IMG/VR virus record: IMGVR_UViG_3300034103_001746
Span: 1-64,000 of that record
Length of the DNA: 64,000 bases
Direction: 5' to 3' (one strand)
Origin: a virus
Positions 172-14,056 of this stretch are shown here, one piece after another; position 1 is the stretch's first letter, and every line of letters begins with the position of its first letter. Below the pieces are notes generated by a model. That model made no database searches. It had not been told where the DNA came from and saw only the letters and a list, made by a program, of their open reading frames with translations. A program made the position numbers and the translations under genes.

Positions 172-213
172 TGCCATTTTGGCAGATTGCTCGGGCGGCC
201 TGCCATTATGGCA
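172..213. repeat. Paired-palindrome element copy 1 (TGCCA-N3-TGGCA, 16-bp spacer, TGCCA-N3-TGGCA)
   Basis: tgccattttggca at 172, tgccattatggca at 201; 29 bp apart. Confidence 0.95.
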
Positions 214-454
214 GGGGATCATCGTCCCGCGAAAGTTCCCAGCCCGCCGCTCTTACAATACTTTTAGTAGGAATTACATTAGTGGTATTGTCTGCACTAA
301 CATAATCTCTATATCCTCTTTCATCAACATAAAAATACTCATCAATAATATCAAACTTATTAGTCATGACTAAACAAGCGATACTAGCCTCAAGAGCATC
401 TTTACGGCTAATAATAACTTCAAGAGTACCAGATTTTACATAAAACTTAGCCAT
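206..454 (-). CDS. hypothetical phage protein
   Basis: 82 aa ORF, GGAG RBS, tightly packed with upstream ORFs. Confidence 0.75.
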   Translation of the reverse strand: MAKFYVKSGTLEVIISRKDALEASIACLVMTNKFDIIDEYFYVDERGYRDYVSADNTTNVIPTKSIVRAAGWELSRDDDPLP

Positions 455-455
455 T

Positions 456-704
456 TTAACTCCCTAAACTAATTACAACAGTATTATCATACCTATCAAA
501 ATCTAACTCAATATTAAAATCATTATCGTCCAGAATAGACTGTAGTTGTTCCTGACTAATCAAAGTGTCATAGTTAGTACCAAAACTAATATCACTATTA
601 GAAACGGCATCAATTACATTTTCATAGTCTAATCCATTATGTTCGCAAACTTCCCGTAGATCGAGATATTCTTGAGTATAACTTTTCATAATATAACCTT
701 TCAA
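456..704 (-). CDS. acidic hypothetical protein
   Basis: D/E-rich 82 aa ORF overlapping the stop of 701-1405. Confidence 0.7.
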   Translation of the reverse strand: MKGYIMKSYTQEYLDLREVCEHNGLDYENVIDAVSNSDISFGTNYDTLISQEQLQSILDDNDFNIELDFDRYDNTVVISLGS

Positions 705-1405
705 TGAGCAGGAAACAATACGTTAGCCAAACCCTTGACGCACATATCACAACTGATACTATCTTTAGTACCAGTGCAAGTAATAACTGATCGACCACGA
801 CGAATCTCGGGACACGTTACAAACTTCTCTCCGTTCAACACAACAAGTTTCGGCAACTCTTTACGCCATGCTTCCGCCTTAGCCTTACTCTTAGGACGCT
901 TGGGGGCAATCTTCATATCACTGTCGCACCATGCGAACAACTTGAAACCTTGTGCCATAGCCTCGCCCATATCGTTATCATCATGGACACTAGCATACAC
1001 ATTCATATACTTTTCCAGACTCACAAGCCGACTATCATAGATATGAGTATAAAACCACATATCGGGCAGACTATCACCATCGGCAAGAATACTCTCACAC
1101 GCCCATGTCCAGTTTGCCAAATAGTCTAAGTCTAATTCACCGTTGAGAAAAAAGTCTCCTCTTTCGTGGATTCTAATACTTTTATTTCTACGTTTTGCGT
1201 CCACAATCATAGCACGAATCTTATGCTTCTCGGTAATAATGTTAGCAAAACCAGCGGTGCGAGCGTTCTTATACTGATTTTCGGTCGCTTCCGCATAGCA
1301 ACCATTATTGAGATAGTCACAGTCGCTCGGGCAAGTATCACCAACGGGCCGCGAAACCACAATGCAACCCTTACCCAACTTGTCGTTACCGTCTGCCGTT
1401 TTCAT
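701..1405 (-). CDS. GP88-like phage protein (Cys-rich, possible Fe-S/metal enzyme)
   Basis: TCPSDC..GCYA and IRIHERGDF motifs, C-terminal CP..C..CxxC; AGGAG RBS and own promoter. Confidence 0.55.
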   Translation of the reverse strand: MKTADGNDKLGKGCIVVSRPVGDTCPSDCDYLNNGCYAEATENQYKNARTAGFANIITEKHKIRAMIVDAKRRNKSIRIHERGDFFLNGELDLDYLANWTWACESILADGDSLPDMWFYTHIYDSRLVSLEKYMNVYASVHDDNDMGEAMAQGFKLFAWCDSDMKIAPKRPKSKAKAEAWRKELPKLVVLNGEKFVTCPEIRRGRSVITCTGTKDSISCDMCVKGLANVLFPAH

Positions 1406-1479
1406 CTTGTGTCTCCTATGCTAATGATTCTACATTAGAATATCGACTTGTCAAGAGAAAGAATCCACAAAATCTTAAC

Positions 1480-1521
1480 TGCCATTTTGGCAGATCGGCC
1501 GCGGAGCCTGCCGTTTTGGCA
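1480..1521. repeat. Paired-palindrome element copy 2 (spacer inverted)
   Basis: tgccattttggca 1480, tgccgttttggca 1509. Confidence 0.95.
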
Positions 1522-1528
1522 GGATAAA

Positions 1529-1600
1529 TAGCCCCAAGAGGAATCGAACCTCTAATCAGTGCTTAGAAGGCACTTGTTATATCCATTTAACTATGGGGCC
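1529..1600 (-). tRNA. tRNA-Arg (anticodon UCU), CCA not encoded
   Basis: GGCCCCA/TGGGGCT acceptor stem, AGTGC-CTTCTAA-GCACT anticodon arm, AGAGG-TTCGATT-CCTCT T arm. Confidence 0.95.
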
Positions 1601-1653
1601 ATAAAATACCGATAGCCGCCAGTGCGTCCACCAGCGGTCTATCGTGTATTATA

Positions 1654-1911
1654 TCAGGCAACAGCCTCCGCTTCAACCTTCGTAGTCTTAGCCTTATGAC
1701 CGTCACCGGCTTCCTTGACGCTCACACCGAACTTGCGATTGCGGGCCACCTTCCAGCCCTGCTCGCTATAGTCCTTGATACCCTGGGCCTTGACCACCAC
1801 AAGAGTACCATCGGGCAGACCATCCGCAAGAGCCTGACGAATCGTATCCTCAACCACTTCCGTATCAAGACTATCCGACGCAACAGCAACAGCAAAATCA
1901 TAAGTACGCAT
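1654..1911 (-). CDS. hypothetical protein (likely start MRTYDF)
   Basis: ORF downstream of promoter 1956-1984; hairpin at about 1610-1644 follows the stop. Confidence 0.7.
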   Translation of the reverse strand: MRTYDFAVAVASDSLDTEVVEDTIRQALADGLPDGTLVVVKAQGIKDYSEQGWKVARNRKFGVSVKEAGDGHKAKTTKVEAEAVA

Positions 1912-2096
1912 AGTAAAAACCTTTCCAAAAAGAGTAATCAACCACAACTAAACGAATCATACATCACTTATCGTCACTCGTCAAGTGCTAGGTTGAACTT
2001 TTTCTGTGTTGGAGTCAACCAGCGTCTTGTCGTGTGATAGTATCATTCTACACTAAGTATCGGCGTTGTCAATCGCCATCGTGAATATTTTTTGGG

Positions 2097-2138
2097 TGCC
2101 ATTTTGGCAGCTTTCGCGGCCCCACTGCCATTTTGGCA
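2097..2138. repeat. Paired-palindrome element copy 3
   Basis: palindromes at 2097 and 2126. Confidence 0.95.
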
Positions 2139-2152
2139 GATAGGGTTTTAGG

Positions 2153-2530
2153 TTATGAGAGATAACCCTCACAACCCTTTTCCGTCAAATCTCGGAGCAG
2201 ATTCTCAGCCGCTTCGGGGGTGCTGAGAGTGATGCTGTTCTTCGTACCATGAGTGGCAGGAACGAACGTGTCATACTTCCATCCACCAACCAGAACGTCA
2301 CTCCAATCCTTGGCTTCCTTCAAGCCCCATCCAGTGTGGAGTCGGATAGCCTTGATGCAGTGAATACGATTATCAAGATTCATACCACCAGTGATGGTAA
2401 CGGTCTTGTTCCTATTCACCTTAAGAGCATCTTCAAAGGCGAGAGTGATCTTGTCGTAAATCGTATCGTAGGACTCAATTTTGGAAAGAATCCACAACGC
2501 CTCACGAACACTCAGTTCCAACTTAATCAT
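2153..2530 (-). CDS. protein with ribosomal bL12 (L7/L12) C-terminal-like domain
   Basis: RIHCIKAIRLHTGWGLKEAKDWSD resembles the bL12 CTD motif KIxVIKxVRxxTGLGLKEAKxLV; ends ..EAAENLLRDLTEKGCE like the bL12 C-terminus. Confidence 0.65.
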   Translation of the reverse strand: MIKLELSVREALWILSKIESYDTIYDKITLAFEDALKVNRNKTVTITGGMNLDNRIHCIKAIRLHTGWGLKEAKDWSDVLVGGWKYDTFVPATHGTKNSITLSTPEAAENLLRDLTEKGCEGYLS

Positions 2531-12600: not shown

Positions 12601-12886
12601 TTTCTTTTCTCCTGTTGGATGGATTCTAAACTGGACTAGACTATGAATCAACCCCCCTACTCGGGGATCGACACAATTTCCACAGTAGGCTCACAATGCT
12701 CACCGCATCGCGGACAAATCCCAATTTCCGCACACGCCTGAGTCATCTGAACACCGCAGCAATCCGAATTGACGAAAATCTCATTTCTCATTTTTCACTC
12801 TACCTTTCTTACTTCTTTATATCGGTATTCTATATTCCGATACTTGAATGTCAAATAAAAAAAATCGGTAGAAAAATTATTTTTTG

Positions 12887-12919
12887 TGGCACAGTATTTG
12901 CTCTGGCATGAGATTTGCT
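12887..12919 (+). promoter_or_regulatory. two tandem sigma54 -24/-12 boxes
   Basis: TGGCAC-AGTAT-TTGCT (12887) and TGGCAT-GAGAT-TTGCT (12904). Confidence 0.7.
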
Positions 12920-12924
12920 ACATC

Positions 12925-12966
12925 TGCCATTTTGGCAGTTTTCGCGGCCAGCCTGCCATTTTGGCA
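12925..12966. repeat. Paired-palindrome element copy 11
   Basis: palindromes at 12925 and 12954. Confidence 0.95.
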
Positions 12967-13026
12967 GTATTCTTTCGCTGGCTACTGTCACAATGTCAGC
13001 CGATAGGATCGGCTGTTACAGTAATA

Positions 13027-13254
13027 TTACTCTGCTCTTACATAAATCTCGCTACTATTACCATTATCATAAATAGTAACAAGCCAGTGTCGGCCGCTAC
13101 CATCTTCCGGCCGCATACCATTTATGATACCGTAAATCTGTCCAAGATTATAACGAATACAAACACGTTCACGATTCTGCATTTTCTGGCAAAGCCAGTT
13201 ATAGTTATAAACGGGGGTTTTATTATCAACAACCATACCGTGTACCGTGCTCAT
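13027..13254 (-). CDS. hypothetical protein
   Basis: 75 aa with purine-rich RBS. Confidence 0.65.
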   Translation of the reverse strand: MSTVHGMVVDNKTPVYNYNWLCQKMQNRERVCIRYNLGQIYGIINGMRPEDGSGRHWLVTIYDNGNSSEIYVRAE

Positions 13255-13409
13255 TTGCTATATCCCTTCATTTGCATAACAAGATTGTAACAATCGTCGA
13301 ATGTAAGATATTCCGCAATAACTTTACCATTCATCCACACGCTATAACGATCCTTACTGTTATTTGTTACATTCCAGTATATCATGTTACATTCTCCAAT
13401 GTAAAAGAA

Positions 13410-13625
13410 TTAGATCGCTACAGTTTTACGATATGCCATAGCATATAGAGCGTCGATAACAACACGAACAACCGTATTCATGTTAACATTCTTATGAGTA
13501 TAATAATTCATACGAATGTCGAAAATGTTATAACTACCATCGAAGTTTTTAACGATAGTAAATCCTACCTTATAAGCGTAGGCGTGAATCTTTCCACGAA
13601 TCGTATTTTCTTTTGGGATTTTCAT
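13410..13625 (-). CDS. hypothetical protein
   Basis: 71 aa, operon position. Confidence 0.65.
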   Translation of the reverse strand: MKIPKENTIRGKIHAYAYKVGFTIVKNFDGSYNIFDIRMNYYTHKNVNMNTVVRVVIDALYAMAYRKTVAI

Positions 13626-13645
13626 ATCTTTTTCTTTCTTTACCT

Positions 13646-13870
13646 TTATCGACCTACAGTCATCAAACCCTTGAAATGAGAAAAAATTAACGTCAAATCC
13701 TTATTAGGATACTTTTGGTCGATATACTTCTGTGCAGTGCTTTTCCGATTATCAGTAGACCCAACATACTGAACAATCGTACCATCCTTATCGACAACTT
13801 TCCACACTTTTCTTTCTTGAATCCTAGGGAGACTGCGGATAAAATCGTTAACGTGAGTTGCCTTTTGCAT
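13646..13870 (-). CDS. hypothetical protein
   Basis: directly downstream of promoter 13897-13924. Confidence 0.7.
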   Translation of the reverse strand: MQKATHVNDFIRSLPRIQERKVWKVVDKDGTIVQYVGSTDNRKSTAQKYIDQKYPNKDLTLIFSHFKGLMTVGR

Positions 13871-13956
13871 TTTCTTTCTCTCTTTCTTATGCTTTGATTA
13901 TACCTTAGAATATCGTCAATGCAAGAAAAAAAAATTAGAATAAAAAAGATTTTTTG

Positions 13957-14009
13957 TGGCATGAGATTTGCTATGCCAATTTGGCAGAGGTTTTGGCACA
14001 ACATTTGCT
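13957..14009 (+). promoter_or_regulatory. two sigma54 boxes flanking a single palindrome (13974-13986)
   Basis: TGGCAT-GAGAT-TTGCT (13957), TGGCAC-AACAT-TTGCT (13994). Confidence 0.7.
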
Positions 14010-14014
14010 GCTCC

Positions 14015-14056
14015 TGCCATTTTGGCAGTTTGGCGGCCCGGCCTGCCATTTTGGCA
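14015..14056. repeat. Paired-palindrome element copy 12
   Basis: palindromes at 14015 and 14044. Confidence 0.95.

Follow-up and report, generated by a model that had tools for sequence, protein, structure and literature searches.

Genomic setting of the paired palindromes

The stretch of DNA analyzed here (the window) comprises bases 1-64,000 of the 149,532-bp IMG/VR virus record IMGVR_UViG_3300034103_001746 (label G000), which is rated 100% complete, and its early region is punctuated by twelve copies of a double palindrome. Open reading frames (ORFs) of at least 200 aa span 17-89 kb of the genome on the plus strand, while those on the minus strand occupy 89.8-149.5 kb and continue from 16.2 kb down to base 1. 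The paired palindromes sit among small minus-strand ORFs that adjoin the divergence point at about 16.9 kb, and their conservation in relatives confirms these early frames as the real genes. The plus-strand set between 17 and 89 kb includes an intein-bearing terminase, tail-fibre-like proteins, a 3409-aa protein and a 3428-aa tape measure, the last of which points to a long non-contractile tail; the phage is not T4-like. Megablast and tblastn against 50,697 phage records returned no match that would indicate a cultured relative.

A search with the 42-bp paired pattern, TGCCA-N3-TGGCA twice, recovered 12 matches in the window: eight exact, three with one mismatch and one (5696) with two, all in an exact 29-bp register. 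The pattern never occurred across 100 dinucleotide shuffles, and 20 single exact palindromes, including a solitary copy at 13974, were found against 0.03 expected. The rest of the record held no further paired copy; the sole other match outside the block was a single palindrome with one mismatch at 103650. An original prediction, made from the letters of the window alone, had listed the same twelve starts and the solitary copy, with constant 29-bp spacing and none past 15 kb, and pattern matching reproduced each of these points: instead of being scattered at random across the genome, the paired motif is confined to the early block. It had also described a spacer core, CGCGGCC, that is inverted (GGCCGCG) in copies 1480 and 5696, and a promoter downstream of each element, usually across an A/T tract; both hold, with a TTGAC(A/G/T) -35 hexamer lying 23-95 nt from every copy on the minus strand across an A/T-rich tract. 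The elements begin 6-141 nt past the preceding gene or tRNA. They are listed below with their gap to the -35 hexamer and with adjoining sigma54-type boxes (TGGCAY-N5-TTGCW).

Element 1: 172-213, minus strand; exact; -35 hexamer starts at 122, gap 49 nt
Element 2: 1480-1521, minus strand; one mismatch, spacer core inverted; promoter 1454-1427, gap 25 nt
tRNA-Arg(TCT): 1528-1601; 6 nt from element 2
Element 3: 2097-2138, minus strand; exact; 14 nt past the stop of ORF 2153-2530; promoter 2072-2045, gap 24 nt
Element 4: 3960-4001, minus strand; exact; promoter 3936-3909, gap 23 nt
Element 5: 5696-5737, minus strand; two mismatches, spacer core inverted, gene strand reads TGACAG in both palindromes; promoter 5671-5644, gap 24 nt
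Element 6: 7300-7341, minus strand; exact; promoter 7262-7235, gap 37 nt; outer TGGCA doubles as the -24 box of a minus-strand sigma54-type site, 7289-7304
Element 7: 8241-8282, minus strand; one mismatch; 14 nt past the stop of ORF 8297-8806; promoter 8214-8187, gap 26 nt
Element 8: 9160-9201, minus strand; one mismatch; promoter 9122-9095, gap 37 nt; outer TGGCA doubles as the -24 box of a minus-strand sigma54-type site, 9149-9164
Element 9: 10902-10943, minus strand; exact; 13 nt past the stop of ORF 10957-11250; promoter 10875-10848, gap 26 nt
Element 10: 12193-12234, minus strand; exact; promoter 12140-12113, gap 52 nt; plus-strand sigma54 box 12173-12188 faces inward across a 4-nt gap
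Element 11: 12925-12966, minus strand; exact; promoter 12854-12827; tandem plus-strand sigma54 boxes 12887-12902 and 12904-12919 face inward
Solitary palindrome: 13974-13986, minus strand; 1 nt downstream of plus-strand sigma54 box 13957-13972
Element 12: 14015-14056, minus strand; exact; plus-strand sigma54 box 13994-14009 faces inward
Sigma54-type box and intrinsic terminator: 14860-14908, plus strand; box 14860-14875, hairpin 14882-14901 plus T-run

Consensus anatomy across relatives

To describe the element beyond one genome, we collected relatives from IMG/VR, where 90 stretches carry the paired pattern; the 80 stretches listed represent at least 54 distinct contigs of up to 224 kb. Allowing up to three mismatches gave 417 copies, 279 of them unique with their flanks, and a strict sigma70 promoter (TTGAC(A/T)-N16-18-TAnnnT within 160 nt, on one side) lies beside 207 of these 279. 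Orienting the copies by this promoter yielded a 44-bp gene-strand consensus, CTGCCA-AAA-TGGCAG, a 14-nt GC-rich spacer, and CTGCCA-AAA-TGGCAG again, which refines the earlier 13-bp description, each palindrome being 15 bp long (CTGCCA-N3-TGGCAG). Arm positions carry 1.6-2.0 bits each; variation is found in most of the spacer and in the central triplets, which on the gene strand are rich in A. The spacer centre is a near-invariant C21-G22 pair of positions, and the spacer holds the asymmetric GGCCGCG core in either orientation. The gap from element to -35 hexamer has its mode at 25 nt (22-27 nt in 102 copies), so that the two palindromes are centred at about -67 and -96 with respect to the sigma70 start and closely precede an A/T-rich UP-like tract.

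In the complete relatives G007-G011 the palindromes fill one block of 9-20 kb. The block of G008, a relative flagged with terminal repeats, lies at 22.8-35.7 kb, some 23-36 kb from the end, which lends no support to the original suggestion that the elements organise the first-injected DNA. Extra palindromes in G008 form triplets and quartets with spacings of 24, 41 and 51 nt (33945-34012, 34745-34853 and 35605-35723); they sit near the end of the block that adjoins a sigma-factor gene, like the solitary 13974 copy in the window.

Sister phages carry a different element at the same sites

The gene adjoining the block encodes a divergent sigma70-like factor (window 16973-17638) with a region 2 match only, below the Pfam cut-off. 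The gene is conserved at 181 further loci in IMG/VR, and among 80 fetched sigma-factor loci only three, on three contigs, have palindromes within the fetched stretches. Genomes G002-G006 are essentially palindrome-free, with a single exact 13-mer, in G002. Instead, the sister phages G004-G006 and G002 have an unrelated double palindrome of about 80 bp at orthologous intergenic sites, directly past conserved early genes: a unit GTAAGTsCTT-N7-AAGsACTTAC, a GC-rich box (GGCGGGCCGGCCG-like), and a second such unit. The complete genomes G004-G006 hold 17-19 copies each, which align without gaps and are gathered in one block of 17-19 kb.

The sister modules (53-bp pitch) thus occupy the same genomic place and follow the same plan of palindrome, GC-rich box and palindrome, and they share with the window element a rigid spacing, confinement to the early block and adjoining sigma54 boxes, whereas their arms are unrelated and their unit has double the length. 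Judged by where it sits and how it is built, the window element is the compact counterpart of this longer one. In the sister element the stems pair in 71.1% of cells against 71.9% after shuffling, with several inner positions mostly unpaired, a pattern that points to blocks of protein contacts and not to a hairpin. Since stems are not kept at orthologous sites, a hairpin is unlikely to be the function that the two types share.

Element type and backbone phylogeny disagree. The sigma-like protein of the window shares 96% identity with that of an other-type genome and 59% with that of an own-type genome, and G000 proteins are on average slightly closer to other-type genomes, which suggests modular exchange of the early block. 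Among the early proteins, conservation is highest for a 234-aa product with a Pfam GP88/DUF7227 match (window 701-1405), which keeps 84-93% identity among phages with either element type.

Element edges coincide with cassette junctions

The first 16.5 kb of the window were aligned by blastn to five genomes that carry the element, and homology blocks of at least 120 nt were recorded. Block ends fell within 8 nt of an element edge in 21 of 118 cases, whereas 2000 random placements gave 3.1 on average and never more than 18, and the edge facing the preceding gene took 17 of these 21 ends, which identifies the travelling unit as element, promoter and gene together. Relative to the window, G008 has its blocks in permuted order, and G007, G009 and G010 contain inserted cassettes or lack some. 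The synteny of inter-cassette blocks therefore bears out the earlier proposal that the elements may serve as recombination anchors, with shuffling like that at the promoter-early stem-loops (PeSLs) of T4-type phages; genome comparison shows the element at the junctions of cassette exchange. Site-specific recombination was considered and rejected: tyrosine (PF00589) and serine (PF00239) recombinases are missing from the genome, which leaves homologous exchange between repeats as the simplest route. The element would form the upstream boundary of a reusable early-gene cassette, in which the double palindrome comes first on the gene strand and is followed by an A/T-rich UP-like tract, a near-consensus sigma70 promoter, a Shine-Dalgarno sequence and one or more small genes, and the same 44-125 bp at every boundary would provide the homology for exchanging, deleting and reordering cassettes among related phages.

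In T4-type PeSLs a stem-loop directly precedes an AT-rich region, -35/-10 hexamers, a Shine-Dalgarno sequence and a start codon (Comeau et al. 2014, PMC4122927), with insertions and deletions, replacements and reordering of gene units at these modules (Arbiol et al. 2010, PMC2839356; PMC4122927). The likeness is close: an inverted repeat precedes an AT-rich tract, a near-consensus sigma70 promoter, a Shine-Dalgarno sequence and a start codon, the composite module recurs where small early ORFs form a hyperplastic block (here 12 copies within 14 kb), the repeat sequence is lineage-specific, and gene units are shuffled at the modules. The differences lie in the repeat itself. A PeSL is a variable GC-stem terminator, whereas the window element consists of two near-invariant 15-bp palindromes that flank a GC-rich core in an exact 29-bp register, lacks an adjoining U-run and covariation, and often has built-in sigma54-type boxes; moreover, PeSLs are known from T4-type myoviruses, while this phage, which has no nucleotide or protein match to any cultured phage, is not T4-like. 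The element is best described as a highly regular variation on PeSL-type cassette boundaries.

Sigma54-type boxes adjoin about a third of the elements

Eight sigma54-type boxes were found in G000, all at 7.3-14.9 kb, and six of them are on the plus strand, antisense to the early genes. The loci of relatives contain 259 boxes, nearly all between the element and the sigma70 promoter. Most face the element across a gap of 5-6 nt, which places the predicted +1 inside the first palindrome arm, and often there is a second box, 26-38 nt more distant. In smaller classes the sigma54 site faces outward, and the outer TGGCA arm of the element serves as its -24 box. With a relaxed definition, a box lies beside 72 of the 207 promoter-associated copies and none lies beside the other 135. 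Insertion of one or two sigma54 boxes between element and sigma70 promoter accounts for the secondary classes, with gaps of some 53 and 80 nt.

On the plus strand of the region a canonical intrinsic terminator occurs only once, directly behind the box at 14860-14875 (hairpin 14882-14901), and the predicted start of that box would fall inside the 5' arm of the hairpin. A further motif, CGATA (mostly CCGATA), occurs in 14 of 25 strict sigma70-type promoters on the minus strand of window 1-17000, nested in the promoter spacer or just past the -10 hexamer, and resembles a sigma28/FliA -10 element.

We then looked for an activator and for a host counterpart of the motif. The phage genome encodes no bacterial enhancer-binding protein (bEBP), no Fis-type helix-turn-helix (HTH), no HTH_8 (PF02954) and no Sigma54_DBD. 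A phage-encoded sigma54 activator was rejected, as the sole PF00158 hit (G000 144630-145526, outside the window) is a full RuvB homologue, with RuvB_N, AAA lid and C-terminal winged helix, and has no GAFTGA-type motif. Among 185,579 bacterial and archaeal species genomes, one contains the exact paired pattern, and this single match is on a 1.8-kb contig of a small-genome metagenome-assembled genome that constitutes a fragment of a related phage's early region. In its exact paired form the motif was thereby dismissed as a host regulatory motif. A literature search on the palindrome and on phage sigma54 early promoters found nothing specific. To our knowledge, sigma54 polymerase has no established role in phage early transcription.

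Search for a phage-encoded binder

For a co-occurrence test, all 473 G000 ORFs were compared by tblastn with five element-positive and three complete element-negative genomes. The hits obtained were only reading frames across the repeats themselves, and these were discarded. Proteins that correlate with element type (a membrane protein, a GMP-reductase-like enzyme and charged unknowns) were also set aside, having no DNA-binding signature. The putative binder may come from the host, or it may be a conserved phage protein whose specificity has shifted.

Beyond the divergence point, the large terminase gene (window 20138-23227) is split by an intein with a LAGLIDADG endonuclease domain, and an ERCC4-type nuclease is encoded at window 19687-20163.

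A putative protein docking site weighed against hairpin and sigma54 readings

Among 136 distinct copies of the window-type element, 93.9% of the cells in the small stems are paired, compared with 93.8% in shuffled copies, and only three changes are double-sided, which reflects conserved columns and not compensation. U-runs start 4-7 nt past the palindrome, and copy 2097 has an A-run instead. Canonical terminators at the early units were tried as an explanation and rejected, since terminator-like sites in 1-17 kb number 16 against 11.0 +/- 3.4 in shuffles and are not enriched. The lack of covariation, the lack of a direct U-run and the unrelated sister element together argue for a protein site and not for a hairpin terminator. 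We therefore give an even chance to the reading, drawn from sequence comparison, that the element is a sequence-specific protein docking site that marks the boundary of PeSL-like early cassettes. The two 15-bp palindromes 29 bp apart would be double-stranded sites for two dimers or one tetramer, and the bound complex would insulate successive early units without ordinary terminators and/or time the activity of early promoters; where sigma54 boxes exist, it would occlude the start site or the -24 box. The comparison shows the position, geometry and conservation pattern of the element, its lack of covariation, its confinement to the early block and the swap junctions at its edge; binding by a protein, the identity of that protein and an action by roadblock, repression or activation are inferred.

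Several observations weigh against a docking site. At 29 bp, the register spans 2.76 helical turns, which would put two dimers on different faces of the helix. When the gap to the sigma70 promoter shifts from 25 to about 53 or 80 nt, helical phase is not kept, which argues against face-dependent contact with sigma70 polymerase. Apart from reading frames across the repeats, no ORF is present in at least four of the five element-bearing genomes and missing from the three complete element-free ones. The 44-mer folds stably on either strand, at -15 to -26 kcal/mol in 11 of 12 copies. Finally, arm variants are strand-biased, which a symmetric dimer on duplex DNA does not predict: gene-strand C.A (opposite-strand G.U) exceeds the reverse by 85 to 19, by 28 to 12 when each flank-similarity cluster is counted once, and by 4:1, 6:1 and 9:3 in a hand tally of three genomes (G000, G008 and G007), always in the same direction. 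By our reckoning, the known transcription-linked deamination bias predicts the opposite direction.

The fold could mean that the element is this lineage's PeSL stem-loop, one long or two small mRNA hairpins that terminate or 3'-stabilise the upstream transcript, with its uniform sequence kept by concerted evolution among copies. Its position past stop codons and before the next promoter, as in PeSLs, agrees with this, as do the gene-strand fold of -14.5 to -22.6 kcal/mol in 11 of 12 copies (z -2.1 to -5.3) and early units that have no other terminators. Yet neither the pairing statistics nor the displaced U-run, replaced by an A-run after copy 2097, fit a selected terminator stem; copy 5696 loses the sense-strand fold (-6.6 kcal/mol), the arm variants are mostly sense-strand C.A mismatches (85 against 19 G.U), homogenisation has affected the arms and not the spacer, and the sister element at orthologous sites does not keep stems. 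We consider an mRNA stem-loop unlikely. The same variants, which preserve G.T/G.U pairing far more often on the antisense than on the sense strand in the overall count, in the per-cluster count and in the three genomes tallied, would suit a single-strand hairpin on the template strand, read by a structure-specific enzyme in the style of N4 promoters or integron attC sites. N4 early promoters have a 5-6 bp stem with a 3-nt loop, equal to the geometry here, and attC sites, like these elements, stand at cassette boundaries. But N4-type hairpin promoters use a virion RNA polymerase, while here consensus sigma70 promoters already follow the elements and drive every cassette and the giant ORFs have no polymerase match, the 3409-aa ORF showing no polymerase signature; attC needs a dedicated recombinase, whereas no tyrosine or serine recombinase is encoded; and the sister element, again, does not keep stems. 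A template-strand hairpin is accordingly the least probable of the explanations weighed here.

The sigma54 boxes raise two other possibilities. The original prediction saw the palindromes as sites for two cooperating dimers, of a host bEBP or a phage protein. In its sigma54 form, a host bEBP would activate the adjacent sigma54 promoters, mostly antisense to the early genes; such antisense firing might, for example, shut off early genes or sense the state of the host. NtrC-family sites are palindromes of 13-17 bp with an A/T centre, such as TTGCA-W3-TGCAA of LuxO, and their tandem enhancers (NtrC at glnAp2, where sites are 32 bp apart, and LuxO at qrr) pair about three helical turns apart beside sigma54 -24/-12 promoters, as the palindromes do here; FlrC and FleQ are effective even when bound downstream of the promoter. 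The eight canonical boxes of the genome, the 259 of relatives with their fixed 5-6 nt gap and the plus-strand terminator after the last sigma54 box fit this scheme, and the part of the original idea that stands is the physical one, in that boxes adjoin about a third of the copies. The regulatory part fares worse. NtrC-family enhancers lie 70-150 bp or more from their promoter, whereas here a palindrome is centred on the predicted +1 or its outer arm is the -24 box, a repressor-like arrangement and not a looping distance; about two thirds of the copies are box-free, the phage has no bEBP, HTH_8 or Sigma54_DBD, the only species-genome match to the paired motif is a phage-like contig, and sister phages retain sigma54 boxes yet have very different palindromes. 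With the palindrome over +1 or -24, no phage activator and species genomes without the motif, the classical enhancer reading is weak, and we hold it to be decidedly unlikely. Alternatively, the palindromes could be arrays of sigma54 -24 boxes that bind holoenzyme non-productively, as a trap or roadblock, with TGGCA on both strands sharing a -12-like GC in the spacer. Each palindrome does contain two outward-facing TGGCA boxes, inner TGGCA is followed by GC at the correct 10 nt in exactly one direction in 127 of 161 central-CG copies (about 81 expected under independence), and in 16 copies the outer TGGCA is the -24 box of a complete site. The would-be -12 element, however, reads CCGC and not TTGC, and the sister element at the same place lacks TGGCA in its arms, which makes such arrays very improbable.

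A docking site also invites comparison with rrnB P1, which has an UP element and Fis sites at -71, -102 and -143. Both combine a near-consensus promoter, an A/T-rich tract at -40 to -60 and palindromes about 30 bp apart from near -67, but the 15-mer misfits the degenerate Fis consensus (G at -7, C at +7), and its helical phase with the promoter is lost where sigma54 boxes are inserted.

Implications for early-gene organization in uncultured phages

The early regions of large phages hold most of the unknown host-takeover genes, and their regulation and exchange are known mainly from T4-type PeSLs. Here the same cassette logic appears in an unrelated, uncultured and evidently abundant phage group, where the boundary mark behaves like a precise protein site and is physically coupled to sigma54 promoter boxes. 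We tentatively suggest, though with considerable doubt, that a large family of uncultured freshwater phages uses fixed double-palindrome docking sites of at least two interchangeable specificity types, read by a host and not a phage factor, tied to host sigma54 and sigma28-like boxes and without a described counterpart in cultured phages. If true, this would represent a multi-sigma, factor-gated switchboard for early transcription that doubles as a recombination grammar for cassette exchange. The binder, once found, would offer a handle on early-gene timing, host prediction for hundreds of uncultured phages, and natural modular promoter and insulator parts.

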